This document shows positions 4,901 through 35,325 of a DNA stretch of 64,000 nt, in pieces. Numbering within the stretch: the stretch's first letter is position 1; each line of letters starts with the position of its first letter. The notes below the pieces were generated by a model, which saw only the letters and a list, made by a program, of their open reading frames with translations, made no database searches and was not told where the DNA came from. This DNA is from an uncultured Gammaproteobacteria bacterium (GTDB lineage Bacteria > Patescibacteriota > Patescibacteriia > Magasanikbacterales > UBA922): positions 85,963-149,962 of the forward strand of contig CAZMHV010000001.1 of assembly GCA_964566225.1 (NCBI GenBank). Reading direction: 5' to 3'. A program made the position numbers and the translations under genes.

Positions 4901-6241
4901 TCATCGCATCCTGGGCTCCACCTCCAGAACGTATACCCCGAGACGCTCCTTCTCGGGAGGGTAGATCGTCGTCAGGACTTCGAGCACCTGCGCTTTGACT
5001 TGGCCAGGCACGATTTTGCCCGCGTCTTCCACCTCGAGCATCGACTCGAAGCTGTCATACCGGCGAATCGCACGGACGGTGATGATCCCCGAGGCATCAT
5101 TCGTCTCGAGTTGGATACGTTCACCCGCCCGGATGCTCCGGATGTTGTCGTAGCCGACTCGTACTTCGAGTGTCTTCCTTCCCGACATGATGTCGAGGTA
5201 GAAGCGCCGTTTGACTCGCATCGTTCTTGGCATGATGTCCTCCAGGTAGTAGCCCCATTGCTGGGTGCTGTAGTCTTCGTGGTAGGCCGCGGGCATCATC
5301 GCATCGAGGGACCATCCCCTGCGTTGCAGGACGATAGTTTCCGCGACCGTTGGGACGAGGTGTGTGTAGAGTTTTCTCCCGTACGGCCTCAGATAGTTCG
5401 GCAAGTCAGTGAGCATCGCCGCAAAAGCGTCGGGGTCACTGGCCACACAGGGCATGAGCTTGATGGGCTGCCCCTTTTTGGGAGTAGCCCCTGCCACACC
5501 ACGCACAGTGTTGGTGAGGTCAACAGCGACGAAGATCAGTTTGAACTTGAGGTTCACTTCTCCTGTGCTGCGACGCCTATATCCTTCAAAGAGGGCATCC
5601 ACCCACTGTCGATCGACTCCGCGGAAGTAGTTTGGAAACGTCCCGTCGAGGATCAGCCGATAGACTCCATCGCGGTGGTGCTCTTCGAATGGCAGTACCG
5701 AAATGCTTCGGTTATCCGGCATTTCCTCATCCACTTCTGTTGTGGAGAGGGTTTTGTAGAGCATCATCTCTGTCACTCCGGGTTTGTAGTGACTCTGAGA
5801 TCGCCCTGCGGGGATGTATCCTTTCTTTCTGAAGAAGGAAATTGCCGAATGGTTCTGTTCTGCCACGGTACAGTAGATTTGCCTTGCTCCACGCTCTCTC
5901 GCGTACTGTTCGGCATGTGCCGTCAGTTCACTTCCACAGCCGTTCTGGGCTTGGAATGCGGGAGCGATGATGAGTGGGCTGATTTTCCAGGTGCCCTGTC
6001 GTTTTCGGACGATGTGAATCATCCCGATTTGGGTCGTACCGTCCACGAGGATGAACATCCTCTGCTCGGCAGAGAAGTGTCCTACGTGATCTTTACCTCC
6101 ACAGATGTGCGTCTCGAAGATCCGAGCCGCATGCGCACGGTGGTCGCCATCGTAGTACGGGGCCAGGGCGTTATCCATGAGGTCTGAGACGAACTGGAAG
6201 TCTGTCTCTTGAGCTTCGCGAATTTTTCGTCCTTCTGACAT
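4901..6241 (-). CDS. Three-domain protein: N-terminal GNAT acetyltransferase, central unknown domain, C-terminal ASCH domain (high-GC cassette)
   Basis: The N-terminal ~165 aa carry the GNAT acetyl-CoA motif (QAQNGCGSEL, then ARERGARQIYCTV). The C-terminal ~110 aa carry the ASCH motif SGRKTLEVR and a YqfB-like end (GVYVLEVEP). GC3 is strongly elevated. The mirror ORF on the plus strand (4847..6187) is a compositional shadow. Confidence 0.7.
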   Translation of the reverse strand: MSEGRKIREAQETDFQFVSDLMDNALAPYYDGDHRAHAARIFETHICGGKDHVGHFSAEQRMFILVDGTTQIGMIHIVRKRQGTWKISPLIIAPAFQAQNGCGSELTAHAEQYARERGARQIYCTVAEQNHSAISFFRKKGYIPAGRSQSHYKPGVTEMMLYKTLSTTEVDEEMPDNRSISVLPFEEHHRDGVYRLILDGTFPNYFRGVDRQWVDALFEGYRRRSTGEVNLKFKLIFVAVDLTNTVRGVAGATPKKGQPIKLMPCVASDPDAFAAMLTDLPNYLRPYGRKLYTHLVPTVAETIVLQRRGWSLDAMMPAAYHEDYSTQQWGYYLEDIMPRTMRVKRRFYLDIMSGRKTLEVRVGYDNIRSIRAGERIQLETNDASGIITVRAIRRYDSFESMLEVEDAGKIVPGQVKAQVLEVLTTIYPPEKERLGVYVLEVEPRMR

Positions 6242-7961: not shown

Positions 7962-8672
7962 TCAGATGGCGAGGCCGACCATCACCACCGGTGCCGCGAT
8001 TTCCGAGATGACGGCCGCCGTTGCAGCACCAACACCCACGGCCACAGCGATGTTGTAGATGTTGTCTCTCACCCATCGCACGGACGGAGGCTCACACATG
8101 CAGAGGCTGAAAGGTATCACACTCTCGTACACACCGAAGCAGAGTCGTCCGTTCTGTCTGTACTTCATGAAGTGGATGTCGAACACCTGGCGGAAGTTTC
8201 CAGCACGGTTGCTCCCGTAGTTGAGTCGGATCGCGTAGTAGTCCGCGGTCCGAGTACACACGGGGAAGTCGTGCCTTCCTCCCGAGGATGTCAGCCTGTA
8301 TTGCCCGACGGCGACGTCGAGGGGGGACTTCACTTCCGTATACGACAGCGGCTCTGTGGACGTTTCTTCTCTGAAGAGGTTGTCCAGCTCGGTGCTGATG
8401 TTCGGGCCGAAGCTGTACACGATGGTGTAGCCGTTGTTCGAAGCCCAATCGGTCAGACTGGGCAGGTAGGACTTGAAGTCCTCCAGCGTGTTGAACTCGA
8501 TCTTGTCCGGGAGCGTCGCCCTGAACTCACCGTTGGTGTCGGTGTCCACCTCGATGAGGTAGGTCTGCTCCGCCGTGCTGGAGGAGTCGTCGTGGGTGCT
8601 GGCCGAGGAGGGGTTGATCCGCTGCTCACAACCGAGCAAGCACAGAATCGCAAACAACAGTTTGAATTTCAT
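7962..8672 (-). CDS. Lipoprotein of unknown function (high-GC cassette)
   Basis: N-terminus MKFKLLFAILCLLGC has a lipobox LLGC. It is followed by a Ser/Thr/Asp-rich linker and a C-terminal Gly/Ala/Val-rich hydrophobic tail. GC3 is strongly elevated, and the antisense ORFs 8172..8756 and 8092..8448 are shadows. Confidence 0.55.
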   Translation of the reverse strand: MKFKLLFAILCLLGCEQRINPSSASTHDDSSSTAEQTYLIEVDTDTNGEFRATLPDKIEFNTLEDFKSYLPSLTDWASNNGYTIVYSFGPNISTELDNLFREETSTEPLSYTEVKSPLDVAVGQYRLTSSGGRHDFPVCTRTADYYAIRLNYGSNRAGNFRQVFDIHFMKYRQNGRLCFGVYESVIPFSLCMCEPPSVRWVRDNIYNIAVAVGVGAATAAVISEIAAPVVMVGLAI

Positions 8673-8844
8673 GGTTGGACTCTCTCTGTGGGTTGGGGTA
8701 CCTGTTGGAGTACTCAATTTGCGGGGTATTCGATAGATTTTCCTTTCGTTGAATAATTTTGAATGGCCAATGGACACAACATGTGTCCATGAGCACAATG
8801 TCTATAAATAATCATATCATAAGTTTAGATTTTTACAAAAATAA

Positions 8845-8872
8845 AAAAACACCCCATTTGAGCGGGGTGTTT
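8845..8872. terminator. Hairpin terminator (acaccccatttgagcggggtgt) after hup
   Basis: Inverted repeat with flanking A/T runs, just beyond the minus-strand stop at 8882. Confidence 0.5.
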
Positions 8873-8881
8873 TGGCAGAAT

Positions 8882-9196
8882 TTAGGCAGCTGCAACAGTT
8901 TTTTTCTTCAAAATATCTTTCAAACCTTTTCCAGCTTTGAATTTTGGTACCGTCACTGGAGGAATTTGAATTTTTTCTGTTGGGTTTTGTGGGTTGACAC
9001 CAACGCGTCCTGCGCGAGTTTTGGCACTAAATTGTCCAAAACCAGCAATGTTTACTGAGCCACCTTGTTTGAGGGTCATCATGGTGATGTCTACAAATGC
9101 TTCGAGCATGGCTTCGGCTTCTTTTTTGTTCATGCCTACTTTGTCAGCGACAGCCTGAGCAAGAAGGGCTTTGTTGAGATGGAGTTGATTTTCCAT
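8882..9196 (-). CDS. hup: HU family DNA-binding protein
   Basis: HU/IHF arm motifs GFGQFSAKTRAGRVGVNPQNPTEKIQIP. Start chosen at MENQ; a TTG start at 9217 is also possible. Confidence 0.85.
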   Translation of the reverse strand: MENQLHLNKALLAQAVADKVGMNKKEAEAMLEAFVDITMMTLKQGGSVNIAGFGQFSAKTRAGRVGVNPQNPTEKIQIPPVTVPKFKAGKGLKDILKKKTVAAA

Positions 9197-12723: not shown

Positions 12724-13818
12724 TTGCGAAATCCGCGTCCCATTCAAGTGATGCGTGTTTTTTCTGAACCTGACAAGCCCCTGGAGATTCAGTTCTCCGA
12801 CGTCTTGCCGGGAACCAAGTTCGAGAGCTGGCAGTGGATGGTGTTCACTGGTCAGCTCGGTGTGGCTCGTGAAGTGGGGGACAACGGTCAACCCGTTACG
12901 TTCTTCGCTGTCAAGACCTATGATCTCGATGTGGTGCGCAATGGCAAGCGCATGTACTTCAAGTTTCATGCTCCCAAGGGCATCGAGGACCTGCCGCCCC
13001 TCTTTGTGGAGGCTCATGCGGACACGCGTGTGGTCTCTGACGTCGATGGTCCGAAGGAGGTCACGTCGTTCACACACTGCCTCTGTGCGAGTGTGTGGCT
13101 GCTTTCTTCTTCGGCCAGTGTGGTCGTCTCCGAGAATCGTCTCCGGCAGCGTGCCCACGAAGCTCGGGTCGTCACCGAGCATGCACAGGCAGTCCAGGCG
13201 ATGCGTGATCGTGTAGGCACGCTCACTCCAATGCAGCTGGCTCCCTACATGCAGCTGTGGGGTCAGTTCAAAGGCAAAAAGACCTCGGATTCTGCCAAGC
13301 AGCAGATCGTGCGTCAGGCCATTGGTGCCTGGGCACGGGCTCAGGGTATGCATGAAACCGAGAGTCTGCTCGAGGCAGTCGGTGACCAGCTCTCTGATCT
13401 CGTGAAGGGCCTCACGGATTACTACCAGGAGTACATCTCCGTCGACACGAACGGGCAGAACAAGGATACTCTCACCAAGCTGCTGCGTGCACATCTGCGG
13501 CCGCTTCTCGAAGATCTGCATCATCCGCTGCAAGATCACCATGTCGATGGCATTGTGTCTTGTCTCGTCTCCAACGGTCGGTTCCCTCGCCGGTTTCGCC
13601 GTATGGTGGGTGACGAGATGCACTCGGTGATGGTGGCGGTGAATCGGGCGATGAAACGGGAGTTGGTCTCTGCTGCACCTGCAGCACAATCAACTGCGCC
13701 CGAGGAGAAAGCAACTCCTCCTCGGCCTGTCGCCGCACGCAGGGGAGGGGGCATTCGTCTCAATCCGAAGAGACTCCCTGGTCTCAGGCGGGACACAGCA
13801 CCTCCCCAAGGCGGCTGA
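12724..13818 (+). CDS. Hypothetical protein, 364 aa (high-GC cassette inside the polysaccharide cluster)
   Basis: TTG start with a strong SD (GGAGGAG, 5 nt upstream). Codons are GC3-rich and the composition is balanced. The antisense ORF 12688..13689 is His/Arg-rich and looks like a shadow. No recognisable domain. Confidence 0.55.
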   Translation: MRNPRPIQVMRVFSEPDKPLEIQFSDVLPGTKFESWQWMVFTGQLGVAREVGDNGQPVTFFAVKTYDLDVVRNGKRMYFKFHAPKGIEDLPPLFVEAHADTRVVSDVDGPKEVTSFTHCLCASVWLLSSSASVVVSENRLRQRAHEARVVTEHAQAVQAMRDRVGTLTPMQLAPYMQLWGQFKGKKTSDSAKQQIVRQAIGAWARAQGMHETESLLEAVGDQLSDLVKGLTDYYQEYISVDTNGQNKDTLTKLLRAHLRPLLEDLHHPLQDHHVDGIVSCLVSNGRFPRRFRRMVGDEMHSVMVAVNRAMKRELVSAAPAAQSTAPEEKATPPRPVAARRGGGIRLNPKRLPGLRRDTAPPQGG

Positions 13819-22081: not shown

Positions 22082-24364
22082 TTAAAAATTTTCCATAGCC
22101 CATCGTGCAATCTTTTCTGGCTCATCAAAGCGATGTGCGTAGTCAGGATTACCCATGGTAATAATAACAAATTTCTTTTTATCAGATTTTCTTTCAACCA
22201 CCATGGCAAGACCTGCGCCTGCTTCGTCAAGGTACCCAGTTTTACTGGTAAGGATCGTAAATGGGAGGCCTGCTTTGTTCATGAGTAAGTTACTGTTTTC
22301 ATCAAAGTGATTTGGTTTTCCATCTTTATCAAGTTTTTCACTGTACTGGTAACTTTTTGCTCCCAAAAATTGTTTTAAGTCCAGTAGGTCAGATGCTCGA
22401 GAAAAAATCTTGAGGTATTCTCGGGCAGTACTTACATTACCAACATCCTCTCCTGTCACATCTACAAATTTTGTTTTCGCAAGTCCAAATGTTTTTACTT
22501 GGGTATTCATTCGTTTAATAAATGCAGATTCGTTTTTTTCAACACTGTCTACCAACATTCGTGACGCTGTATTGATAGAGGATACCAGCATCGCAGACAT
22601 GAGATCTTGATTGGTAATTTTTTCACCACTGGCTACACGAAAAGTTCCATAGGTAGCTTTGTGTTCGGCTGGTGTGTAGGTAACGGTTCGAGTCATTTTT
22701 ATGCCTTCTTGTTCCAGTCGATAGGCTGTCATAACTTTGGTAAAAGAAGCAAGTGGTCTTACAAAGTCAATATTTTTGCCTGCCAAAACTTTTTGTGTGC
22801 CAAAGTCTGCTACCAAGTATGTCTCTACTGGTGTGGTAAATTGTTTCCCCACAAAGCTCAAATCTTTTTCAGGTGTTGTAATCATTTTTTGTCCTGAGTC
22901 ACCGCTTGGTGTTTCATCTCCACTCACTGTTATGGGAACGGTATTGGGTGTGTTTGAAGAAGGTGAAGTGGCAACCATGTTGTCACGTAAAAATATACTC
23001 TGTCCTGTTTTGTGATAGATACCAGTTATAACATCAACGGGAATGACGTTTTTGAATGAAAGCCCCCATCCAACAAACGCTTCGTAACTAATATGACGTT
23101 TTTGTCCATGTTCAATGAAATAAATTTCTGGTGATCCTTCAATTTGGATAAGCGTACCATCTTGAAACAAAATAGGGTCACCCAAAGTAAGTGTGTGCAA
23201 ATAGCTAATAGGTTTTTTTGTTTCAGTTAGTCCTGGATACTGTGTACGAGCAATCGCATTGTGCATAATAGGACGGTATATTCCGTCTTTTACAAAGTAG
23301 AGTTGATTGTTTTCTTGAATACGAACAAGTTCTCCGACTGGTGCCGATGTTTCTGTGGTAATGATACTGCCTGTTTGGAGTCCCACAAGGTCGGCGTCTT
23401 GTACTTGTAAAATTTCATCCGGATTATATCCAAGTTTTCGGACAACTTCAAAACTTGCAAATGGGTGAAGTGTATCGTAATCAAGTAAGTAATAATTTTC
23501 ACCATTTTTTAAGAGTGAATAGTTTGGCAGAGAAATAGGTTCAAGGGTACTATAACGAATAAGCTCAGACTCAGGAGCATTGATAATGAGATTTGGGTTA
23601 TAACGACTTGAAAGTGCGGCCATGCTATTGAATGGACGTTTTTTTCCATCTTGAATAAGGTAAACAGTATTATTGACTACTGATTTTACCAAAGTTCCAT
23701 CAGGGAATACTTGGTCAAACCATTTTTGCCACAGTTTCCAAAAATTTTGGTTTCCTTGGATATGTGGTGTATACGTATACAAAAAAGCAGTGGCCTGTGT
23801 GGCAGGAACAACGGTTTGTCCATCAATGTTATATGAAGTATTTGATCGTTTAATCCAACTTTGGGAAGGTACATTGTCATAATACCAGCGCATAATACCT
23901 GCCGCACTATCAACCTGATTTCCTAAACCTCGGTATTTTTGAATTTTTGGGTCGTCCATGGAGCAGGCATCACACACACCGTATCCGGTGGCCCAGTCAA
24001 GTTGTTTTTGTGTAGGATTGTCTTCGGTGATGAGACTTTGTTCTTTTTGGAGTTTTACCAGTAAATATTTTGGGTTTATTTTATAATTTTGTGCAGCTTC
24101 TTGAATAATTTTTGCTGTACTTTTGGGTATGCCGTCTTTGTCTGGGGTTTGAATTCTGCCAATATAGCTTCGGTGATCATTTAAAAATGCCTGGATGTCT
24201 CCTTCGTTCATGCACTGCCAGTTTTGCATTTCATCGTCACTAATAATGAAGTTTGGATTAAAGTCGGCCGCTGCTGCCAAGGCAAGAGACGGAGAAAGAA
24301 GAGAGAGTATTGATAAAAAAATTATCGAAGTTTTGGTTCGGTAGTTCATAAAGTATAAGATCAC
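22082..24364 (-). CDS. Secreted serine-type D-Ala-D-Ala carboxypeptidase (peptidase S11) with a ~450-aa N-terminal extension
   Basis: Signal peptide present. The C-terminal third has the SxxK (ASFTKVMTAY), SxN-like and KTG (LTSKTGY) motifs. Confidence 0.7.
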   Translation of the reverse strand: MILYFMNYRTKTSIIFLSILSLLSPSLALAAAADFNPNFIISDDEMQNWQCMNEGDIQAFLNDHRSYIGRIQTPDKDGIPKSTAKIIQEAAQNYKINPKYLLVKLQKEQSLITEDNPTQKQLDWATGYGVCDACSMDDPKIQKYRGLGNQVDSAAGIMRWYYDNVPSQSWIKRSNTSYNIDGQTVVPATQATAFLYTYTPHIQGNQNFWKLWQKWFDQVFPDGTLVKSVVNNTVYLIQDGKKRPFNSMAALSSRYNPNLIINAPESELIRYSTLEPISLPNYSLLKNGENYYLLDYDTLHPFASFEVVRKLGYNPDEILQVQDADLVGLQTGSIITTETSAPVGELVRIQENNQLYFVKDGIYRPIMHNAIARTQYPGLTETKKPISYLHTLTLGDPILFQDGTLIQIEGSPEIYFIEHGQKRHISYEAFVGWGLSFKNVIPVDVITGIYHKTGQSIFLRDNMVATSPSSNTPNTVPITVSGDETPSGDSGQKMITTPEKDLSFVGKQFTTPVETYLVADFGTQKVLAGKNIDFVRPLASFTKVMTAYRLEQEGIKMTRTVTYTPAEHKATYGTFRVASGEKITNQDLMSAMLVSSINTASRMLVDSVEKNESAFIKRMNTQVKTFGLAKTKFVDVTGEDVGNVSTAREYLKIFSRASDLLDLKQFLGAKSYQYSEKLDKDGKPNHFDENSNLLMNKAGLPFTILTSKTGYLDEAGAGLAMVVERKSDKKKFVIITMGNPDYAHRFDEPEKIARWAMENF

Positions 24365-25386: not shown

Positions 25387-26901
25387 TTGCAATCTCACAA
25401 AAAACATATGCTCAGTGACTACACAAAATACAGACTCTTTGAAATCTTTCCCGGTTTCACGGTCTGGCTCACCCTCCTTGGCGCGATTGCTTTGTCATTT
25501 TTGAAACCACTCTGGATGATTTATTTTGTTATTATTTTTGATATCTACTGGGTTCTCAAAGCCGTCAATTATTCTTTTTATCTGGTGCTTTCTTGGTTTC
25601 GTTTTAAATTGGTACGCAGTGAAAATTGGAAGCACCGTATACAAAGTGAAGAAGTCGGTAAAAATTTAAAACACATTATTTTTATTACTTTGTACAACGA
25701 ACCTTGGGAAGTAGCTGAACCAAGTATTGCCGCTATGGCAGATGCAGTGTATGACAAAGAAAAATTTGTGGTGGTGATTGCAGGTGAAGCTCGCAAAGAA
25801 GATAATTTCCACGATGTATACAATAGAGCTCACCAAAAATTTGGTGATAAGTTTCATGCTATTTTAGGCACACTGCATCCGGCAACACTGGAGGGAGAAA
25901 TTCCAGGCAAAGCATCAAACCTCCATTTTTCTGAAAAAGAAGTGAATGAATATATTGAGCAGCAAGGTTGGGATAAAACAGAAGTCATTGCTACTATTTT
26001 TGATACCGATGCTATTTGTCACGAACAGTATTTTGCATATTTGGCATACGTATATTCACATCATCCAAATCCAACCAAAAGTTCGTATCAACCAATTCCA
26101 TTTTACAACAACAATTTGTGGGAGTCTGGTCCTATACTTCGTATCATGTCTTTTGGTACCAGTTTTTGGAAAATGGTCTCACTCTCTCGTCAAGATTCAC
26201 TTCATACTTTCTCGTCATATTCAATTAGTTGGCAGGCCCTTTGTGATATTGGATTTCACGACAAAACCGTGATTGGTGAAGATGCTCGTTTGTTTTATCA
26301 ATGTCAACTCAGGTACGATGGCAACTATCAAGTAACCCCATTGTATTTGCCAGTGTTCATGGACACGGTGCGTGACGATAAATGGTGGAAGAGTCTCACC
26401 AATCTGTACGTACAGCAACGTCGCTGGGCCTATGGCGTTGAGCAAATTCCTTTTTTGCTCTGGAATTTTTACAAAAAAAATACCAAAATGAGTTTTTGGA
26501 AAAAACTCAAATGGGGATTCAATGAGTGGGAGAGTAAGTGGTCCTGGTGTTGTTCTGTACTTCTCATTACTATTTTGGGTCGTTTGCCACTGTGGCTGGC
26601 ACCTGAATCTATTCGTGAGACCACATTGTTTTTCAATGCGCCACATGTACTGCAGGTACTCATGAATATTGCCATGTCTGCACTCTTTTTGTCTGTGACA
26701 TTTAGTTTACTGCTCATGCCAGTGAAACCCAAAAGTTACCCAAATTATTATTATATATTTGTTGTATTGCAGTGGCTGCTTATGCCTATTTCACTCGTGT
26801 TCATGGGAGCCTTTCCAGCGATTGATGCGGTGACACGGCTTATGCTTGGTAGATACTTGGGATATAAAGTCGCTCAAAAAAGTAGAGTTACTATTACCTA
26901 A
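25387..26901 (+). CDS. Membrane-integrated processive glycosyltransferase family 2 (cellulose/hyaluronan-synthase-like)
   Basis: N-terminal TM helices, a cytoplasmic GT-A domain, a QQRRW (Q-x-x-R-W) motif, then further TM helices. 504 aa. Confidence 0.6.
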   Translation: MQSHKKHMLSDYTKYRLFEIFPGFTVWLTLLGAIALSFLKPLWMIYFVIIFDIYWVLKAVNYSFYLVLSWFRFKLVRSENWKHRIQSEEVGKNLKHIIFITLYNEPWEVAEPSIAAMADAVYDKEKFVVVIAGEARKEDNFHDVYNRAHQKFGDKFHAILGTLHPATLEGEIPGKASNLHFSEKEVNEYIEQQGWDKTEVIATIFDTDAICHEQYFAYLAYVYSHHPNPTKSSYQPIPFYNNNLWESGPILRIMSFGTSFWKMVSLSRQDSLHTFSSYSISWQALCDIGFHDKTVIGEDARLFYQCQLRYDGNYQVTPLYLPVFMDTVRDDKWWKSLTNLYVQQRRWAYGVEQIPFLLWNFYKKNTKMSFWKKLKWGFNEWESKWSWCCSVLLITILGRLPLWLAPESIRETTLFFNAPHVLQVLMNIAMSALFLSVTFSLLLMPVKPKSYPNYYYIFVVLQWLLMPISLVFMGAFPAIDAVTRLMLGRYLGYKVAQKSRVTIT

Positions 26902-26907
26902 TTTACT

Positions 26908-28353
26908 ATGTTTCGTAAACCTTGGGTGTATATTGCGTTGTGTTTTGTCATCATTATCATTGGCATTGTTGTGTTTGTTCGCCAAACCACACCCAAACAA
27001 ATTTTCAACTTACCTCTGGTCAAAGAAACTTTGGTCAAAAAAACAGGTCCGACGAAAAAAGCTTTGGTAGATTTGCTTCCAACTTTTTTGGGATTTGAAA
27101 AACCCAAAACATATTTGGTATTGTTTGAAAATAATACAGAACTTCGTCCAGGTGGCGGATTTATTGGGACGTATGCTTTGGTGAATGTTGATAACGGAAG
27201 TATTCATCCGCTTGTTGTTGAAGGCACTGAGTCACTCGATAATAGAGTCAAAGATCAAGTCACCGCAATACCTCCAAAAATTATTCAAGAAAAACTTGGC
27301 TTGGGGAAGTGGTATTTTCGTGATAGTAATTGGTCACCAGATTTTGTAGAAAGTTCCAAAAAGGCTTTGGAATTTTATGCTGCCGAAAATGGTCAGTCAG
27401 CCCAAGATATTGATGCGGTGATAGCACTGACTCCTACGGTTCTTGAAGAACTTCTCAAAATAACTGGCCCTATTACGGTGCAAGGGGTTGAATTTAACGC
27501 AAAAAATGTAGTGAATAGACTTGAGTATGAAGTAGAATTTGGTTTTGAACACAAAGGTATTGATTTTGCCAATAGAAAGCAAATTATAGAACCATTTTTT
27601 CATGCAGTGCTCAAAAAAGTTGCACCGGATGCCTTGCTTCATACGAGCAAGTATATGGATTTGTTTGACACTTTGGCCAAACAAAAACAGATTTTGGTAT
27701 ATTTCAAAGATACTGGTATCCAAAAAACCATGCAGGAATATGGATGGACAGGGGATGTCAAAGCAGTAGATGGAGATTTTGTGATGTGGGTAGATGCGAA
27801 CCTGGGTGCACTCAAAACAGATCAGGTGATGCAAAGAAATTTACAGTATATGGTTCAACCCGTTGATGAAAAAAATTCTGAATTTGTGGCTCATGCCAAA
27901 ATGCAATATATGCATACTGGTGTTTATGATAAATTTACCAGTCGTTATCGTACCTATGCTCGTGTTTATGTACCACTCGGAAGTGTGCTCAAGGAAGTAA
28001 ATACTGTTCAAAATAATGGTCAAAAAACTCGTTTGACTACTATTGATCAAGGATTTGAAGTAGGCAAACAATGGTATGGTGTATTTATTACCATTGAACC
28101 AAAAGAAAATAAAGAACTGGAATTTGTGTATACACTCCCACCACGGGTGACGAGTCAAATACATGGCCGTACGTATACACTTTTGGTTCAAAAACAAGCA
28201 GGGCTTACTGACGCCCGATTGACGCTTAGGTTGAATTTTGGTACTAATATTACGTCAGCTAGTCCAGCAGAAGAACAAAAAGAGTGGGGGAATGCTGTTT
28301 ATAATAAAGCTATGAATTTTGACACTGATCAGAAGTTTGAAGTGAAAATGTAA
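26908..28353 (+). CDS. DUF4012-like protein (N-terminal TM anchor, conserved LRPGGGFIGTY motif)
   Basis: The ELRPGGGFIGTYALV motif shortly after a single N-terminal TM helix is characteristic of DUF4012. 481 aa. Confidence 0.5.
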   Translation: MFRKPWVYIALCFVIIIIGIVVFVRQTTPKQIFNLPLVKETLVKKTGPTKKALVDLLPTFLGFEKPKTYLVLFENNTELRPGGGFIGTYALVNVDNGSIHPLVVEGTESLDNRVKDQVTAIPPKIIQEKLGLGKWYFRDSNWSPDFVESSKKALEFYAAENGQSAQDIDAVIALTPTVLEELLKITGPITVQGVEFNAKNVVNRLEYEVEFGFEHKGIDFANRKQIIEPFFHAVLKKVAPDALLHTSKYMDLFDTLAKQKQILVYFKDTGIQKTMQEYGWTGDVKAVDGDFVMWVDANLGALKTDQVMQRNLQYMVQPVDEKNSEFVAHAKMQYMHTGVYDKFTSRYRTYARVYVPLGSVLKEVNTVQNNGQKTRLTTIDQGFEVGKQWYGVFITIEPKENKELEFVYTLPPRVTSQIHGRTYTLLVQKQAGLTDARLTLRLNFGTNITSASPAEEQKEWGNAVYNKAMNFDTDQKFEVKM

Positions 28354-29374: not shown

Positions 29375-29390
29375 AGGATCTGATCTCGTA

Positions 29391-29501
29391 CTTGACGACG
29401 CAGTAAGTTTATTTTTTCAATTTTGAAACGGGGTCTTCGACCGCCGCCCGCGCCGCGGGTGGTGATCAAAATTGAAAAAATAAACTTACTGCGTCGTCAA
29501 G
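29391..29501. repeat. Palindromic repeat element, copy B: 35-bp perfect inverted arms with the same GC-rich core as copy A, in reverse orientation
   Basis: Arms cttgacgacgcagtaagtttattttttcaattttg and its perfect reverse complement. Core aaacggggtcttcgaccgccgcccgcgccgcgggtggtgat, which is the reverse complement of the copy A core with a single mismatch. Confidence 0.8.
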
Positions 29502-29515
29502 TCTAAAATTTTAAT

Positions 29516-30106
29516 ATGATTTCTCTCTCTGCACAAAGTATTCTTCATACCAAAACTGGTGATTGGAAAATTCTCGTCTATACAGAAGAAAAAAAGTTAG
29601 AACATGTGGCTCTTATAAAAGGTGTGGTAGAGCCTGGGAGTACCCCACTCGTGCGTGTTCATTCAGAATGTTTGACTGGTGACACACTGGGTTCACTGCA
29701 CTGTGATTGTGGTGAGCAAAAAGAAGCTGCACTTCAAAGAATTGCCACAGAAGGGAGTGGTATTTTTTTGTATATGCGCCAAGAAGGTAGAGGAATTGGT
29801 CTTGCCAGTAAAATTCAGGCATATGAGTTGCAGCGAGTAGAAGGACTCGATACCGTAGAAGCGAATTTGAAACTCGGGCGTGAGGCAGACGAACGGTGTT
29901 ATTTGCCGGCGTCTTTGATGCTCCAAGATTTAGGAATTACCTCTGTGCGATTACTGACCAATAATCCTGATAAAAAAGTTGGGCTTGAACAACATGGTAT
30001 GATGGTGACTGAACTTGTGCCCACTGAAGTATTTCCAAATGAAATAAACAAAAAATATTTGGAGACCAAGAAAAATAAGATGGGACATATTTTGAAGAAT
30101 GTGTAA
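29516..30106 (+). CDS. ribA: GTP cyclohydrolase II
   Basis: Zinc site CLTGDTLGSLHCDCG and the catalytic region YMRQEGRGIGL. Confidence 0.85.
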   Translation: MISLSAQSILHTKTGDWKILVYTEEKKLEHVALIKGVVEPGSTPLVRVHSECLTGDTLGSLHCDCGEQKEAALQRIATEGSGIFLYMRQEGRGIGLASKIQAYELQRVEGLDTVEANLKLGREADERCYLPASLMLQDLGITSVRLLTNNPDKKVGLEQHGMMVTELVPTEVFPNEINKKYLETKKNKMGHILKNV

Positions 30107-30140
30107 GATTTTTTAACCCTATTATTTAAATTTTTTACTT

Positions 30141-32468
30141 ATGCCAGAAGGTTTTCACCGCGAAGGCCAACCCATGGATGTTACTTTTTCAAGTTCTTTT
30201 TCTGATAATCGTGACGATAGTCCAAAGTCAGCTGAAACTTGGTTGAATCAAGAGAAAACTTTACATGAACAAGAGAATGTTGGTGGACCAGAAACAGGTT
30301 TAAATTTTGTAGATGAAGTGCGAGATGTTGTGGTACGAGGAGAAAAAAGAAAGATGCGACAACAAGGACTTTTTGATAGATTAAAAACGCATTCTCTCAT
30401 GCTTGCTTCTGCTCTCGGTATAAGTGCAGGATCTTTTGCTATGCTTGATTCAGAAACGAGAAATAGTGTCGTTGAAAAGGCTCAAGAACTTATGGCTGTG
30501 GCACAATTTGGGGATAAAGAACAGCAAGAACTTGCGGCACAAGCAAAGCAAGCACTTTCAAAAGATTTAAAAGATATGCAACGTGAAGGCAGTGATGAAC
30601 AATCAGAAGTTGAAAGAAGAAAACAGCTCATTGATGTACATATGAAAGTGTTGGAACTCAAAGGGGGTGTCTCACACGAAGAAACAACTCGAACAAAAGA
30701 ATACATCGAACGACTGGTAACAAAGTATCAGAAGATGAAGAGAGAAGGTTTTGGAAATCACCAAAATTACAAAGAAAAGATGTTTTCTGACCTTTTTGAA
30801 TTATCCAAAGAAACAGGACGTTATGAACCAGGCAAAGCAAGAATTTCTTCTATTGCCAATGATGGAGTAGGGAACTGTGAAGCAAAAGCATTGCTTCGTC
30901 GTCTCGTAGTACCATTTGTGTATCCCGAAAGTGAACTCAAATTTCAGCATTTTGGGCCAGGAGAAAAGACTTCGCCAGATCAAGGTGCTACTGAGAATGC
31001 CGGTCATGTGCGTATGATTATGAGAATTGAAAAAAATTGGTACGCACTTGAAGATGGTGTACCACAAAAACTTGCTCCAAATGATTTGGTAGGAACACTT
31101 ATTACAGATATTGATGTATTTGAAAAATCACTGCTGGGTGAACATGTTGGTGGCAAGCCAGTAAAAAGTGAAGGAGCTGTGGCTCGGGAGTCGACCGCAA
31201 AGACCAATAGTTTATTTGATCTTCAATTTGACACTCCACCAACACGGTCTTTGCCCGGTGGTATTTCGCAAACCGAAACTCTGCAAGAATTTAACAAACG
31301 TCAAAGACTCGAATATACCGCTGCAGGTCAAACTCTGGATCCCGAGAATTTACCTCCGCTCAAAGTGTATATTGGTGAAACACTTGAAGATGTTTCTGCA
31401 CAAATGGGTGGTGGAGAAAAAAAAGAAGATATGCTAAAGCCAGAAGATCCACATGAACTTCCTGAAGACAGGAAGATGAGGGCAATGATTGATGGTGTGT
31501 TGGATTTATCTGGGAAGAACGTATTTTATGATCTTTCTGCTTTGCATGGGGTTGAACTGAAAGCAATATATGGAGGTTATTTCGGAATACGTGGAAAAGT
31601 CGCTGACAAGTATGCACAAGAATTTACAGCACATTTTTCAAAGGTTCCAGAAATCAGTCTGAGTGTAATAGATAAAAGTAGTCAATCCGTAGCTGATGCT
31701 TTCGAAACACTAAAAGATTTAAGTGTGACTCGTCTCGACGGAACAAAAACAGATCTCAATTTTTTGAGGGGCAAAGATACTCTCAAAAGATTTTCTTTGA
31801 TTGGAACAAATGGTACGGTTGATCTTGAACCTCTTGGTGGACATCAGTTAGAAAGTTTGAGATTATCAAATCATGTAACGAAAGAAGGTTTCAAAAATTT
31901 GATTGCCGTTGATACGAGTATGCTTAAGGCTGTATCAATAGATACAATTTTAGTGAATCAAGAAATTGAAAAGTTTATTGCAGGAATATCAGGTGCCAGG
32001 GAATTTCAGCTCAATTTTGAAACTCAAGAAGGTAAAAATTTTAAAATTTTTGATTCTGTAAATGAGTTAAAAACAAAAAATCTTGAAAGATTTACTCTCA
32101 CCATGCTTGAGCGTCCAATTCAAGGGGAATTTACTTTTGATTTGACAAAAATTTCATCGCAACCACTCACAAATTTGGAACTTTGGGGTATTTCGGCAGA
32201 GCGCCTTGAAGCCCTTGAAGGTATGCCATTAGAAAATTTGACTCTAGAAATAAATTGTGAAACCACGGACATCTCTCCACTCAAAAAGCTTCCAAAATTA
32301 CAAAATTTGGAGATTATTTGTAATGGAGAAATTTCTTCAGAGGTTGGGAATTTTGTTCAGTCGCTTCCTGTGAGAGAAAAAAGGGTGAGAAAAGTTGGTG
32401 ACGGTGTTGACGATGACCAAGATTATCTTACACAAAGGAAACTCGGTGTGAGGCCAGCGGGTGAATAA
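30141..32468 (+). CDS. Large hypothetical protein (775 aa) with a C-terminal internalin-type leucine-rich repeat region
   Basis: No signal peptide. The N-terminal ~200 aa are charged and predicted coiled-coil. The C-terminal ~250 aa contain LRR units such as LENLTLEINCETTDISPLKKLPKLQNLEI. Confidence 0.6.
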   Translation: MPEGFHREGQPMDVTFSSSFSDNRDDSPKSAETWLNQEKTLHEQENVGGPETGLNFVDEVRDVVVRGEKRKMRQQGLFDRLKTHSLMLASALGISAGSFAMLDSETRNSVVEKAQELMAVAQFGDKEQQELAAQAKQALSKDLKDMQREGSDEQSEVERRKQLIDVHMKVLELKGGVSHEETTRTKEYIERLVTKYQKMKREGFGNHQNYKEKMFSDLFELSKETGRYEPGKARISSIANDGVGNCEAKALLRRLVVPFVYPESELKFQHFGPGEKTSPDQGATENAGHVRMIMRIEKNWYALEDGVPQKLAPNDLVGTLITDIDVFEKSLLGEHVGGKPVKSEGAVARESTAKTNSLFDLQFDTPPTRSLPGGISQTETLQEFNKRQRLEYTAAGQTLDPENLPPLKVYIGETLEDVSAQMGGGEKKEDMLKPEDPHELPEDRKMRAMIDGVLDLSGKNVFYDLSALHGVELKAIYGGYFGIRGKVADKYAQEFTAHFSKVPEISLSVIDKSSQSVADAFETLKDLSVTRLDGTKTDLNFLRGKDTLKRFSLIGTNGTVDLEPLGGHQLESLRLSNHVTKEGFKNLIAVDTSMLKAVSIDTILVNQEIEKFIAGISGAREFQLNFETQEGKNFKIFDSVNELKTKNLERFTLTMLERPIQGEFTFDLTKISSQPLTNLELWGISAERLEALEGMPLENLTLEINCETTDISPLKKLPKLQNLEIICNGEISSEVGNFVQSLPVREKRVRKVGDGVDDDQDYLTQRKLGVRPAGE

Positions 32469-33612
32469 TTTTTTAGAGAAAGACTTTATTCAAACTATGC
32501 AACAAAAATTTTTTGAACACGCTCTGCAGCTCGCCCAAAAAGCCTTGGGCCATACTTCACCAAATCCATGTGTGGGTGCTGTTGTGGTAAAAAATGGTGA
32601 AATTATTGGTGAGGGGTATCACAAAAAAGCGGGGAGTAAACATGCCGAAGTCGTGGCTATTGAAAATGCCGTCCGCAATGGTTTTTCTGTGGAAGGAGCC
32701 GATGTCTATGTCACGCTCGAGCCCTGTTGTCATGTTGGCAAAACTTCAGCTTGTACTGAACTTCTCATCAATTCCAAAATCAAACGCGTTTTTGTGGGCA
32801 TGAAAGATCCATTTAAACTAGTGAATGGTGGTGGTATCAAAGTATTGAAACGTGCGGGCGTTGAAGTAGAAGTATTACCCAAGTATCAAGATTTGACTGA
32901 ACAAATTCGTTTTATCAATCAGCCATTTATCAAATGGGCGCTTACAGGTTTACCCTATGTCACTTTGAAAGCTGCCGTTAGTCTTGATGGACGTATTGCT
33001 ACGCGTACCAACGACTCCAAATGGATCACGAGTGACGAAGCACGTATTGATTCCAAACGTGAACGAAGCATGTGTGATGCCGTACTTGTGGGCAGTGGCA
33101 CAGCCAAAAAAGATAATCCAGAGCTGGCACCACACGGAAAGTTTACAGAAAAACAACTCAAAAGAATTTTGATTGATCCAGATTTGTCTACACCACTGTC
33201 ATTTCAAATATTTCGTGACAGCAATGTATTTGTAGCGACCACACATCGGGCTGACAAAGAAAAACAAGCAGAATTTGCGACTAAAAATATTCCGGTCGAA
33301 CCACTCGGTGTAGAAAAAATTGAAATTAAACATTTACTCCAGCATCTTGGCAAAATCGGCGTGCAACACCTATTTGTGGAGGGTGGCAGCAGTGTGCACG
33401 GCTCATTTTTTGACGAAGCCATTTACGATCCACTCGTTATTGATCGCATTGTCTGGTACATTGCTCCCAAATTCATCGGTGGCCGTGAAGCCATTTGTTC
33501 TATTAGTGGCACAGGCATTGAAAAAATCACACAGGCACGGAGTATGGAAAATGTGCGTACTGAGCTGGTGGGGCCGGATATTAAGGTGAGTGGGTATTTG
33601 AATGTGTATTAA
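32461..33612 (+). CDS. ribD: Bifunctional riboflavin biosynthesis deaminase/reductase RibD
   Basis: CMP/dCMP deaminase zinc motif HAEVVAI...TLEPCCHVGKT, followed by a C-terminal RibD reductase domain. The true start is probably at MQQKFF (32497). Confidence 0.85.
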   Translation: MNNFLEKDFIQTMQQKFFEHALQLAQKALGHTSPNPCVGAVVVKNGEIIGEGYHKKAGSKHAEVVAIENAVRNGFSVEGADVYVTLEPCCHVGKTSACTELLINSKIKRVFVGMKDPFKLVNGGGIKVLKRAGVEVEVLPKYQDLTEQIRFINQPFIKWALTGLPYVTLKAAVSLDGRIATRTNDSKWITSDEARIDSKRERSMCDAVLVGSGTAKKDNPELAPHGKFTEKQLKRILIDPDLSTPLSFQIFRDSNVFVATTHRADKEKQAEFATKNIPVEPLGVEKIEIKHLLQHLGKIGVQHLFVEGGSSVHGSFFDEAIYDPLVIDRIVWYIAPKFIGGREAICSISGTGIEKITQARSMENVRTELVGPDIKVSGYLNVY

Positions 33613-33694
33613 ATTGTCTAAAATAAGCCATTTTTGACAAAAAATCAACTTTTATATATACTATAAATATAGTTTATATATTAAATTCATATAT

Positions 33695-33943
33695 ATGTCA
33701 GTAGTTAATTTTGCGATCTCGAAACCTCTTGAGGTAAAAATCAATAAAGTTATCAAAAAAGAAGGCTTTGCTAGTAAAGCAGAATTTTTTCGGTTTGCTG
33801 CAATGAACTATATCAGTCGTTTTCGTGAAGACATTTCTCAAGAAGAATTTGAAGAGTCAGCCCGAGAATTTAAAAGTTCCATCGAAAAAGCTGTAGCTAA
33901 GAAAAAATTTCCATCACTCGAAGATCAACTGTCTGATTTATAA
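33695..33943 (+). CDS. Ribbon-helix-helix (CopG/ParD-like) antitoxin
   Basis: 82 aa. The beta-alpha-alpha pattern AISKPLEVKINKVIKKEGFASKAEFFRFAAMNYI is typical of RHH. It ends 5 nt before the downstream toxin gene. Confidence 0.55.
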   Translation: MSVVNFAISKPLEVKINKVIKKEGFASKAEFFRFAAMNYISRFREDISQEEFEESAREFKSSIEKAVAKKKFPSLEDQLSDL

Positions 33944-33948
33944 ATAGT

Positions 33949-34281
33949 ATGTACCAATTTGTTGTCCCTGAGTATTTTAGGAAACAAATAAAAAAGTACG
34001 TAAAAAAACATCGCTCACTTTTGGGTGATGTTATTTTTTGTCTAAAAAATTTTGATCCGGAGAGTCATACAAATTTAGGTGAAGACGTTTATAAAATTCG
34101 GCTCATGGTATCAGATATGAAAAAAGGGAAAAGAAACTCTTTTCGGCTCATCGTTGTTCTTGTTCGTCACAAAGATACATTAATCCCACTCACTCTCTAC
34201 TATAAAGGTGATCAAGATTCAATTTCTAAAAGAGAAATTCAAGAACATTTTAAATTTGTCATGAGGGAACTTTTATTTTAG
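33949..34281 (+). CDS. RelE/ParE-superfamily toxin (HigB/YafQ-like)
   Basis: 110 aa. The C-terminal half YKIRL...GKRNSFRLIVVLVRHKDTLIPLTLYYKG matches the RelE/ParE beta-sheet core. Immediately follows the RHH gene. Confidence 0.5.
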   Translation: MYQFVVPEYFRKQIKKYVKKHRSLLGDVIFCLKNFDPESHTNLGEDVYKIRLMVSDMKKGKRNSFRLIVVLVRHKDTLIPLTLYYKGDQDSISKREIQEHFKFVMRELLF

Positions 34282-34282
34282 T

Positions 34283-34714
34283 ATGTTTTACACCCAACCC
34301 CCCGAAAACTTCACCCCAGACTTTCAAGTCGTTGGCTGTTACCCCGAATACAACGGCAAGTTATTGTTTTTGCTTCGTCACCCGAGCAAGGTACAGGGCA
34401 ACACATGGTGTGTGCCAGGAGGAAAAGTAGATGAAGGCGAAACGTTGGAGCAAGCAACACTTCGTGAACTCACCGAAGAAAGTGGAATTGTGGCTGCACC
34501 ACAAGACGTGAAATTTTTTCAAACCGTTTATAAAGTGACACCAGAGTTTCGTTACACATTTAGTATTTTTTCACTCAAACTTGATTCTCTTCGTGACATT
34601 ACCATTAGTCCAACTGAACATACCAAGTATATGTGGGTGACACTTGAAGAAGCGTTGCAAATGACGTTGATTGAGGACGAAGATAAATGTTTACAGTTGT
34701 TATATAAACTATGA
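34283..34714 (+). CDS. NUDIX hydrolase
   Basis: Nudix box GGKVDEGETLEQATLRELTEESGI (GX5EX7REUXEEXGU). Confidence 0.85.
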   Translation: MFYTQPPENFTPDFQVVGCYPEYNGKLLFLLRHPSKVQGNTWCVPGGKVDEGETLEQATLRELTEESGIVAAPQDVKFFQTVYKVTPEFRYTFSIFSLKLDSLRDITISPTEHTKYMWVTLEEALQMTLIEDEDKCLQLLYKL

Positions 34715-35325
34715 TTACTACCATTTTTTTTGATCTCGACGGGGTACTCACTACCAAAAATAATGGGAGCCTTACCACCTGTGAGTACATCAGCACGCAA
34801 ACAGGCATTCCTTTAGAAAAAGTTTTATCTTCTTTTCGAGGGGAATTTTCCAAACAAGTTTCTTTTGGTGAGAGGACCGATGAAGAATTTTGGCCACTCT
34901 TTTGTGAAGCACTGGGTGTTTCATTGCCACTTACACTTTTAGACGAAGCTTACAAAAGTACTCCACAAAATGAAAGTATGTTTGCTCTCGCTTGTGAACT
35001 CAAAAAAAAATACAAGATTGGTCTTATTACTGATAATGGTCGTAGAAGAATGGAAGTCCTCGGTAGTATCTGGAATTTTAAAGAGTTGTTTGATAGTATT
35101 ACTACATCCTATGATGTCGCGGCATTCAAAGATAATGAAAAGATTTTTCAACTCGCTTTGGAACGATTGCAGGTTTCTGCTGATGAAACAGTTTTTATAG
35201 ATAACGGTGAAAAAAATTTAGTTATCCCTGCACAAATGGGTTTCAAAACGTATTATTTTGATGAAACAAAAAATGATATCGAAAGTCTCACTACGCAGTT
35301 GCGAGATTGGGGAGTAAACATATAA
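34711..35325 (+). CDS. HAD-superfamily hydrolase (subfamily IA-like)
   Basis: Motif I FFDLDGVL at the N-terminus and a motif IV aspartate region near the C-terminus. Overlaps the NUDIX gene by 4 nt. Confidence 0.75.
   Translation: MITTIFFDLDGVLTTKNNGSLTTCEYISTQTGIPLEKVLSSFRGEFSKQVSFGERTDEEFWPLFCEALGVSLPLTLLDEAYKSTPQNESMFALACELKKKYKIGLITDNGRRRMEVLGSIWNFKELFDSITTSYDVAAFKDNEKIFQLALERLQVSADETVFIDNGEKNLVIPAQMGFKTYYFDETKNDIESLTTQLRDWGVNI

Follow-up and report, generated by a model that had tools for sequence, protein, structure and literature searches.

Gene X, the 775-amino-acid (aa) open reading frame (ORF) that separates the riboflavin genes ribA and ribD in a 64-kb stretch of contig CAZMHV010000001.1 from an uncultured bacterium (the window; positions are numbered from its first letter, and the code is the standard one), represents a new sequence family and architecture inside a known superfamily. 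Its product combines a central domain of predicted transglutaminase-type fold, in which one Cys and one His are invariant across the family, with a C-terminal leucine-rich repeat (LRR) solenoid; fold class and LRR are both of known kinds. The gene has been inserted, in one lineage, between rib genes that elsewhere adjoin each other. As to its presumed function, we lean towards reading protein X as a tethered modular cysteine enzyme whose LRR tail recognizes a variable partner outside the cell, the gene itself being a passenger in the rib operon. An earlier note on this DNA, made from its letters and ORFs, had instead proposed an internalin-type LRR adhesin or effector. As far as our searches and the literature show, neither the sequence family nor its architecture nor the apparent turnover of its alleles in bacteria of the Candidate Phyla Radiation (CPR) has been described; a literature search on Peregrinibacteria and LRR proteins found nothing.

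The Cys-His-Glu domain and LRR solenoid of protein X

The central domain was modeled with AlphaFold from a 39-sequence alignment, which yielded a mean predicted local distance difference test (pLDDT) score of 92.9 and a predicted template modeling (pTM) score of 0.89. In this model a three-helix bundle (aa 161-223) is followed by Cys246 at the head of helix 246-260 and then by strands. His289 heads strand 289-296 and Glu304 lies just past strand 299-303, both on the beta-hairpin that follows the Cys helix. A Cys at the start of a helix with His and Glu on the following strands is the arrangement of papain-like and transglutaminase-like enzymes. The same residues stand out in our set of 56 family sequences, which are 15-30 % identical overall. 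Cys246 (codon 30876-30878) and His289 (31005-31007) are present in all 56, and position 304 (31050-31052) is Glu or Asp in 51 of them. Tyr228 (53/56), Asn245 (51/56), Gln269 (50/56) and Trp300 (49/56) are conserved as well, and Arg291 is also counted among the key residues. The earlier note had described a charged coiled-coil N-terminus, which proved to be largely the three-helix bundle belonging to this domain model.

When the domain model was compared with the PDB using Foldseek, the leading matches were all transglutaminase-fold Cys-His-Asp/Glu enzymes, with probabilities of 0.93-1.00, E values of about 1e-3 to 1e-2 and template modeling (TM) scores of 0.39-0.46, values that indicate remote similarity. 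These matches were LapG (4fgq), a putative protease (3isr), TglA (9crn), an arylamine N-acetyltransferase (NAT; 2pqt), CPR-C4 (7pjo), a bacterial transglutaminase (4xz7), the vasohibins and PeiP/PeiW. The same fold classes recurred in BFVD and among the non-LRR matches of the full-length model of X. Sequence searches of the PDB with X and with the central-domain profile gave nothing significant, the faint matches being to UCH-L3, CPR-C4 and TssM. In the weak profile match to the UCH-L3 His loop (E 0.17), the YALE motif of the family was aligned with YELD of UCH-L3, the Asp of which we take to be catalytic. Hidden Markov models (HMMs) for Transglut_core (PF01841), BTLCP (PF06035), NAT (PF00797) and vasohibin did not match the central domain of X. 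From the predicted structure we conclude that this domain belongs, at fold level, to the transglutaminase-like/papain-like cysteine enzyme superfamily, and the conserved residues suggest that it is catalytic.

Within this superfamily, CPR-C4 and the vasohibins (7ob6/7ob7/7pjo) are transglutaminase-fold cysteine proteases that match the model with probabilities of 0.96-0.98 and E values of 3e-3 to 7e-3. CPR-C4 is also specific to the CPR and gave a faint profile match to X over the Cys-to-His region (E about 1). The CPR-C4 protein has about 230 residues (233-237 aa in its PDB chains) and has been described as homodimeric, its triad being Cys61-His93-Leu115(carbonyl), with a Zn site in addition (Cornish et al. 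2022, PMC9108980). Protein X differs in its acidic third residue, Glu304, in its spacing of 43 and 15 residues versus 32 and 22, and in its extra domains. Membership of X in the CPR-C4 family was rejected on the Glu/Asp at the third position, in place of a Leu carbonyl, and on the profile E value. Because triad and spacing differ, the sequence family of X is a new one in a fold class already known.

This family is very rare and belongs to bacteria with small genomes that have not been cultivated. Only five of its proteins turned up in a database of 5.8 billion. A central-domain profile covering the domain plus linker (aa 155-472) was searched against one representative per 50 % cluster (1.84 billion) of about 15 billion proteins and returned 55 representatives with E≤1e-3, 26 of them with E≤1e-10. 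Scans of JGI metagenomes and of IMG/VR with the X alignment found no relatives, and cluster look-ups of the members examined returned unnamed singletons or tiny clusters. In none of the 56 members was the central domain covered by a Pfam model (E≤0.01), and neither NCBIfam nor PADLOC models matched X. PHROG models likewise did not match X or the family members P0005, P0006, P0013 and P0044; another member, P0022, matched short stretches of four PHROG families of unknown function, all inside its repeat region. A defence-system component and a phage origin were both rejected for X on the PADLOC, PHROG and IMG/VR results.

Members have a constant module in common, which starts with a short, basic tail at the N-terminus and continues through a single anchor-like hydrophobic segment and a helical region into the transglutaminase-fold domain. 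Their C-termini vary, X and many others carrying an LRR solenoid. In an alignment of five subfamily members, the central domain and the adjoining linker were the best-conserved parts of X and the LRR region the least conserved. Identity to X in the four homologs was 60/39/52/21 % for aa 1-83, 67/46/25/21 % for aa 103-159, 77/55/55/53 % for aa 160-340, 85/67/58/48 % for aa 341-434 and 63/31/32/35 % for aa 435-750; the start of X (MPEGF...) is kept in P0001, P0002 and P0004. The linker is thus conserved at least as well as the catalytic-type domain in three of the four comparisons. It contains the motifs TNSxF, PPTR/KxY, ETxEE(F/Y)xxRQRLxY and DPxNLPPLKVY, and TNSxF, PPT[RK]xY and E[TS]xxE[YF]xxR are also seen in the wider family. 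The linker may serve in autoinhibition or autoprocessing, or may contribute a strand that packs against the enzyme.

The full-length AlphaFold model, built from a 5-sequence alignment, predicts with high confidence a C-terminal beta/alpha solenoid, in agreement with the earlier note. It has about 12 evenly spaced short strands (aa 500-750) that alternate with short helices or loops. Foldseek placed internalin A first among PDB matches of the full-length model (8h64_C/1o6v_A), followed by other LRR proteins (probability 1.00, E 1e-3). The corresponding sequence signal was present but below threshold: the sole Pfam match of X was LRR_4 at aa 697-729, with 19.1 bits against a gathering score of 27 and an E value of 0.0016. 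LRR_4 was significant in 11 of the 56 family members (best E 2.4e-23); an LRR HMM built from the repeats of P0022 was too narrow for counting LRR-bearing members. The expectation of about eight 22-residue LxxLxLxxNxIxD units held for the LxxLxL solenoid as such and failed in detail, as we count about 12 irregular units of 21-29 residues, often with a D(L/I)xPL turn, from which the conserved Asn is largely absent. The distant members P0022 (L019, 6001-7929) and P0030 (L020, 6001-8535) contain very regular 22-residue LRRs of the DLSPLKGMPI type.

The internalins and SDS22-like LRR proteins (InlA, 1o6v/8h64; InlF, 4fmz; LMOf2365_1307, 4ezg) resemble X in the predicted solenoid (probability 1.00), and several X units fit their pattern of about 22 residues, LxxLxLxxxxxxD(I/L)xPLxxxxx. 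In contrast to these proteins, X carries its LRRs C-terminal to an enzyme domain, in units of irregular length with a sub-threshold HMM score and no Asn ladder, and lacks an N-terminal signal peptide or cap, an Ig-like inter-repeat domain and an LPXTG or GW anchor. Its N-terminus (MPEGFHREGQPMDV...) is acidic rather than hydrophobic, its C-terminus (...RKLGVRPAGE) is devoid of LPXTG, and a Pfam scan revealed no inter-repeat domain or known wall-anchoring domain. We therefore rejected internalin membership, and with it the classification as an internalin-type protein. From the model we conclude that the LRR solenoid of X is real, irregular and outside the internalin family.

The extreme N-terminus, as had been noted before, does not look like a signal peptide. 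That description missed the hydrophobic segment at aa 84-102, which is preceded by six Lys or Arg residues within 15 positions. An equivalent segment lies near the N-terminus of most members, often with an LHxG motif. The 19-residue Kyte-Doolittle mean reached at least 1.2 in 41 of the 56 members and at least 1.6 in 21. Across the family, Lys plus Arg averaged 4.5 over the 15 residues preceding the segment and 2.3 after it, with more before than after in 33 members and fewer in four. This pattern points to a signal anchor of N-in/C-out topology, which would leave aa 1-83 in the cytoplasm; because the segment of X is marginally hydrophobic, we call this topology somewhat more likely than not.

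Table 1. Features of the ribA-X-ribD region (window positions)
Feature	Position	Strand	Basis
ribA, monofunctional GTP cyclohydrolase II, 196 aa	29516..30106	+	PF00925 1.4e-58; TIGR00505 215.8 bits (cutoff 205.85); NF001591 above cutoff
ribA-X spacer, 34 nucleotides (nt), AT-rich	30107..30140	+	Sequence; without promoter- or terminator-like site
Gene X, 775 aa + stop, multidomain, rare unannotated family	30141..32468	+	ORF
X, N-terminal tail aa 1-83, acidic then K/R-rich, poorly conserved	30141..30389	+	aa 1-75 pLDDT <50; low-confidence helix from aa 56
X, hydrophobic segment aa 84-102, HSLMLASALGISAGSFAML, candidate signal-anchor/transmembrane helix	30390..30446	+	Kyte-Doolittle 19-residue mean 1.38, marginal
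X, charged helical stalk aa 103-159	30447..30617	+	Helices 104-118 and 126-147, low confidence
X, catalytic-type domain aa 160-340, predicted three-helix bundle + transglutaminase/NAT-like core	30618..31160	+	AlphaFold domain model, conservation, Foldseek
X, conserved linker aa 341-434, predicted disordered	31161..31442	+	pLDDT <50
X, irregular LRR-type solenoid aa 435-750, fastest-evolving part	31443..32390	+	AlphaFold pLDDT 80-93, alternating strands
ribD, bifunctional deaminase/reductase	32497..33612 (ATG; alternative GTG 32461)	+	TIGR00326 5e-98, 328.5 bits (cutoff 156.35)
Sigma-70-like promoter match, 11/12, region's best, just past ribD stop	33634..33662	+	Consensus match alone

Insertion and evolution of gene X at the rib locus

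Three plus-strand ORFs of 196, 775 and 383 aa span 29516-33612, and domain searches (Table 1) bore out the earlier identification of the flanking two as ribA and ribD. The closest relatives of this RibD among GTDB species genomes are 42-51 % identical over their best segments and come from metagenome-assembled genomes (MAGs) labeled Peregrinibacteria, Peribacteria, Gracilibacteria or Patescibacteria. The bacterium is therefore probably a Peregrinibacteria-like member of the CPR. A complete riboflavin pathway has been reported for the class Peribacteria (PMC4736985). Among nine related MAG loci, eight (L008-L012 and L014-L016) have ribD starting 0-60 nt after the end of the GTP cyclohydrolase II coding region, with nothing between, and the ninth is cut off, so that the two genes are normally direct neighbors, as had been supposed. 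In these relatives the gene upstream of ribD is a fused ribBA of about 400 aa, comprising 3,4-dihydroxy-2-butanone 4-phosphate (DHBP) synthase and GTP cyclohydrolase II, in the context rpsB-x-tsf-ribBA-ribD; the fused form was seen in L008-L012, L015 and L016 (6804-8012 in L008).

The order ribA-X-ribD was found in four independent contigs, namely the window, L004 (X 44 % identical), L006 (70 %) and L007 (44 %); L005 is a near-identical copy of the window. In this clade ribA is monofunctional, retaining just the GTP cyclohydrolase II half, and lies downstream of mreB, and no RibB (DHBP synthase) domain is encoded anywhere within the 64-kb window. The block DUF4012-mreB-ribA-X-ribD-GT4-holB is shared whole between the window and L004. 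The most distant subfamily member, P0005 (38 % identity to X), lies between yceG/mltG and a gene for an extracytoplasmic function (ECF) sigma factor. As X occurs between ribA and ribD only in this small clade, we conclude that it is a lineage-specific insertion, in line with the acquisition proposed earlier. Since ribA is monofunctional, follows mreB and has no RibB domain for company in the window, the rib locus has been rearranged as well as interrupted. The composition of X is host-like, as previously described, and slightly lower in GC (0.387 versus 0.406 for the window; GC at third codon positions 0.25 versus 0.30-0.37 for its neighbors). A second copy of X was sought within the window and none was found.

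The spacing of the three genes bears on their expression. The X-ribD junction is an 8-nt overlap if ribD starts at GTG 32461 and a 28-nt gap if it starts at ATG 32497. The latter is the likelier start because the nucleotide similarity to the L004 and L007 ribD genes sets in at 32496. Within the ribA-X-ribD unit, promoter- and terminator-like sites were no commoner than in shuffled sequence, and the promoter-like site beyond the ribD stop likely marks the end of the unit. Co-transcription of X with the rib genes, suggested earlier from an overlap of the X stop with the ribD start, is therefore plausible on other grounds: the genes share a strand, their spacers are tight (34 nt, then 28 nt or an 8-nt overlap) and no internal signal rises above chance. 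The overlap itself depends on the less likely GTG start. A flavin mononucleotide (FMN) riboswitch sought upstream of ribA was not found, the hairpin matches obtained being spurious and far under the gathering score.

Linkage to rib genes is restricted to the X subclade. No rib genes lie near P0005 or at 18 wider-family loci, 14 of which were recovered from JGI/ENA metagenomes by a GNCEARAK-coding pattern; one of these 14 is on a groundwater contig labeled 'Hain-H41'. Neither did any conserved partner gene recur across the family loci examined. A riboflavin-pathway role for X was rejected on the lack of rib genes near P0005 and these 18 loci, and the most economical reading is that X is a passenger insertion without a riboflavin role in a rearranged locus in which ribBA has been reduced to ribA.

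At the protein level, X evolves faster than its neighbors. Between the window and L006 the proportion of synonymous differences (pS) was 0.50 in both ribA and X and 0.67 in ribD, and the ratio of nonsynonymous to synonymous divergence (dN/dS) was 0.23 for X versus 0.09 and 0.07 for the rib genes. Within X the LRR region was fastest (dN 0.24) and the linker slowest (dN 0.09). More generally, dN/dS was 0.23-0.38 for X as compared to 0.03-0.18 for mreB, ribA, ribD, GT4 and holB. The comparison with L007 gave a different picture. The two sequences are 97.3 % identical at the nucleotide level from the end of an upstream hairpin through ribA (pS 0.053) to about codon 20 of X. Identity then collapses over the rest of X (44 % aa identity, pS 0.64) and returns to 88.9 % at the start of ribD (pS 0.34). 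The window is thus nearest to L007 by ribA and ribD and nearest to L006 by X, the flanks of L006 being more distant. This discordance between X and its flanks would reflect either allele exchange by recombination between strains, with at least four X allele classes of 37-46 % mutual identity, or a chimeric metagenome contig in the case of L007.

Possible functions of protein X

In the mechanism that we favor, X would be inserted into the membrane through its anchor segment, with its N-terminus inside and its enzyme and LRR parts facing outward. The LRR solenoid would then bind a macromolecular partner, and the tethered Cys-His-Glu domain would perform thiol-dependent acyl chemistry on that partner or on a neighboring peptide, cleavage of a peptide or isopeptide bond being the most likely reaction and transamidation a possible one. 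The partner would vary and would most plausibly be a surface component of a host or partner cell, making X a plausible tool for action on the surface of another cell. We propose a variable partner because the LRR region evolves fastest and whole X alleles apparently swap between near-identical backbones. The gene would meanwhile ride inside ribA-ribD and borrow the transcription of the operon.

Four findings weigh against this mechanism or parts of it. Because the transglutaminase fold class also holds acetyl-CoA-dependent NATs and the non-catalytic proteins Rad4 and menin, the fold does not fix the chemistry. The mosaic pattern rests on a single 3.2-kb metagenome contig, L007, which is possibly a chimeric assembly. 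The overall dN/dS of X is below 1 and thus no evidence of positive selection. Lastly, the anchor segment is of marginal hydrophobicity (Kyte-Doolittle 1.38, with a summed energy on the Hessa scale of about +4 kcal/mol), which would also fit a cytoplasmic location.

Two groups of known proteins combine an enzyme with a binding domain in a comparable way. The IpaH/SspH/SlrP effectors fuse an LRR recognition domain to a cysteine-dependent enzyme domain and are used on the proteins of another organism. Their resemblance to X is an analogy only, as the domain order is reversed and their NEL E3 ligase fold is unrelated (X has no Pfam NEL match); they are delivered by type III secretion, a route for which X offers no evidence. 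The pseudomurein endoisopeptidases PeiW and PeiP (8jx4, 8z4f) are closer in fold, being transglutaminase-fold Cys-His-Asp enzymes that carry a repeat-type binding domain and cut the wall of another cell. Their fold matches (probability 0.6-0.7; PeiP of phage psiM2 in BFVD) were weaker than those of LapG or NAT, and unlike X they are phage enzymes that act on methanogen walls by way of unrelated binding repeats.

A bolder proposal, which as a whole we consider unlikely, is that the X family comprises strain-variable, surface-tethered 'guided' cysteine enzymes of CPR bacteria. The exchangeable LRR module would select a surface molecule of the partner cell and the Cys-His-Glu domain would cut or cross-link it, so that X would act as a determinant of host range or attachment whose alleles are kept diverse by recombination between strains. 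Were this true, CPR bacteria would possess a class of host-interaction factor that has so far gone undescribed in them. Few candidate molecules are on record for the way in which these ultra-small bacteria recognize and exploit other cells, a process still poorly understood. The X family is a concrete and testable candidate: its fold is modeled with confidence, three residues can be singled out, its topology is predicted, and its recognizable binding domain differs between strains that are nearly identical. Besides CPR-C4, it is a further sequence family, so far unannotated, among the transglutaminase-fold cysteine enzymes.

The alternative that survives best, though we find it doubtful, is that X is a self-directed envelope enzyme that matures or releases an adhesin of its own cell, as LapG does by cleaving LapA, or cuts or cross-links peptidoglycan stem peptides in the manner of the endoisopeptidases PeiW and PeiP, while the LRR region holds the substrate or a regulatory partner. 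It draws on LapG of the BTLCP family (4fgq, 4fgo, 4u65), the top structural match (probability 1.00, E 1e-3, TM 0.41-0.46), whose transglutaminase-like core bears a Cys-His-acid triad and whose substrate, a surface adhesin, is processed outside the cytoplasm; PeiP and PeiW also match. Envelope genes are often found near family members: mreB, DUF4012 and a D-Ala-D-Ala carboxypeptidase gene in the window, yceG/mltG by P0005, a class A penicillin-binding protein gene by P0006, and murB near P0022 and P0030. This neighborhood signal is weak because envelope genes are common in these small genomes, and neither a LapD/LapA-like partner nor any other neighbor is conserved across the loci. Similarity to LapG was not seen at sequence level, where the BTLCP and Transglut_core HMMs gave no match and no LapG chain appeared in PDB sequence searches taken to E 10. 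A small soluble protein of the periplasm, LapG has its signal peptide cleaved, carries a calcium site and works with LapD and LapA, whereas X is 775 aa long, lacks such neighbors, is probably membrane-tethered and comprises additional parts (helical bundle, conserved linker and LRR domain). Membership in a LapG system was rejected for X on its neighbors (mreB, ribA, ribD, a toxin-antitoxin pair, NUDIX, HAD and GT4) and its internal anchor-like segment. Moreover, a housekeeping self-substrate would leave the divergent LRR region and the apparent allele replacement unexplained.

We judge it quite unlikely that X is a cytoplasmic enzyme, either a NAT-like acyltransferase or a regulatory protease, with the LRR region as a protein-protein adaptor and aa 84-102 not serving as an anchor. 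NATs (2pqt, 2pfr, 4dmo, 4nv7) were among the best fold matches, comparable to LapG (2pqt, E 2.6e-3, probability up to 1.0; a BFVD NAT, E 2e-4). Their catalytic Cys comes after an N-terminal helical bundle. In X the helical bundle before Cys246 and the Cys-43-His-15-Glu spacing resemble NATs, whose catalytic spacing is about Cys-39-His-15-Asp, and the PDB title of 4dmo describes a NAT with a Cys-His-Glu triad. The marginal hydrophobicity of aa 84-102 would also fit. NATs are soluble three-domain enzymes of the cytoplasm that use acetyl-CoA on small arylamines, whereas X gives no NAT HMM match and has an N-terminal pattern of basic then hydrophobic residues that is conserved family-wide; its 316-residue LRR domain and 94-residue conserved linker would be uncommon in an enzyme that acts on small molecules. 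The most speculative version has X acting on the amino-pyrimidine intermediates of RibA and RibD, which would explain its position and the retention of the ribA-X-ribD order down to 44 % X identity. Against this version, P0005 and the 18 wider-family loci are unlinked to rib genes, and the retained order needs no functional explanation because the whole DUF4012-mreB-ribA-X-ribD-GT4-holB block is syntenic in L004.

Very unlikely, finally, is a non-enzymatic internalin-type LRR adhesin or effector with a central spacer or scaffold, as put forward in the earlier note: the predicted solenoid, the internalin A match of the full-length model and the weak LRR_4 match speak for it, whereas it overlooks the central domain that defines the family even in the many members without an LRR HMM match, the internalin hallmarks discussed above are missing, conservation is highest in the central domain and linker and lowest in the LRR region, and the invariance of Cys246 and His289 in such divergent sequences argues strongly against a non-catalytic reading.

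Surroundings of the rib locus and of related loci

The window is a dense, housekeeping-gene segment of a chromosome with 40.6 % GC. Upstream of ribA lie mreB and, before it, a gene for a DUF4012 protein; ribD is followed by a small ORF and genes for a RelE-like toxin, a NUDIX hydrolase, a HAD hydrolase, a GT4 glycosyltransferase and holB. Further envelope-related genes are found upstream of mreB at 22082-24364 (minus strand) and 25387-28353 (plus strand). They encode a 760-aa D-Ala-D-Ala carboxypeptidase (Peptidase_S11) protein, a 504-aa multi-pass membrane ORF without a Pfam match and the DUF4012 protein.

The interval between the mreB stop (29374) and the ribA ATG (29516) contains an inverted repeat (29390-29502) whose 37-nt arms match perfectly and enclose 39 nt of GC-rich spacer. 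As RNA it would fold with -74.8 kcal/mol (z -12.6); it is present once in the window and has no real Rfam family match. The repeat is absent from L004, where mreB adjoins ribA, and its right arm was found in L007. It could be a terminator, an insulator or a small palindromic mobile element.

Downstream, the region 33695-35325 between ribD and GT4 holds an 82-aa ORF and the genes for the RelE-like toxin (PF06296, 1.3e-6), the NUDIX hydrolase and the HAD hydrolase. In L004 these four genes are missing and ribD directly adjoins GT4. The strongest promoter-like site of the region (33634-33662) sits upstream of them. The four genes are probably a second local insertion consisting of a toxin-antitoxin pair and cargo.

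At the related loci, the ECF sigma factor gene beside the X homolog P0005 is accompanied, within L001 12447-18716, by a gene for a 1889-aa protein with matches to alpha-2-macroglobulin (MG2, A2M) and Big_5 domains, along with Hint/intein-type domain matches. P0022 and P0030 occupy the same chromosomal position in different genomes, in the order murB ... infC-rpmI-rplT, trxB and family member, followed on the opposite strand by an unannotated gene for about 929 aa.

Elsewhere in the window three GC-rich islands interrupt the 40 % GC background. The island at 12724-13818 (plus strand, GC 0.575) encodes a 364-aa ORF without a Pfam match, that at 4901-6241 (minus strand, GC 0.56) encodes a 446-aa GNAT acetyltransferase + ASCH protein, and a third lies at about 8000-9000 (GC 0.51). 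These islands may be horizontally acquired genes.

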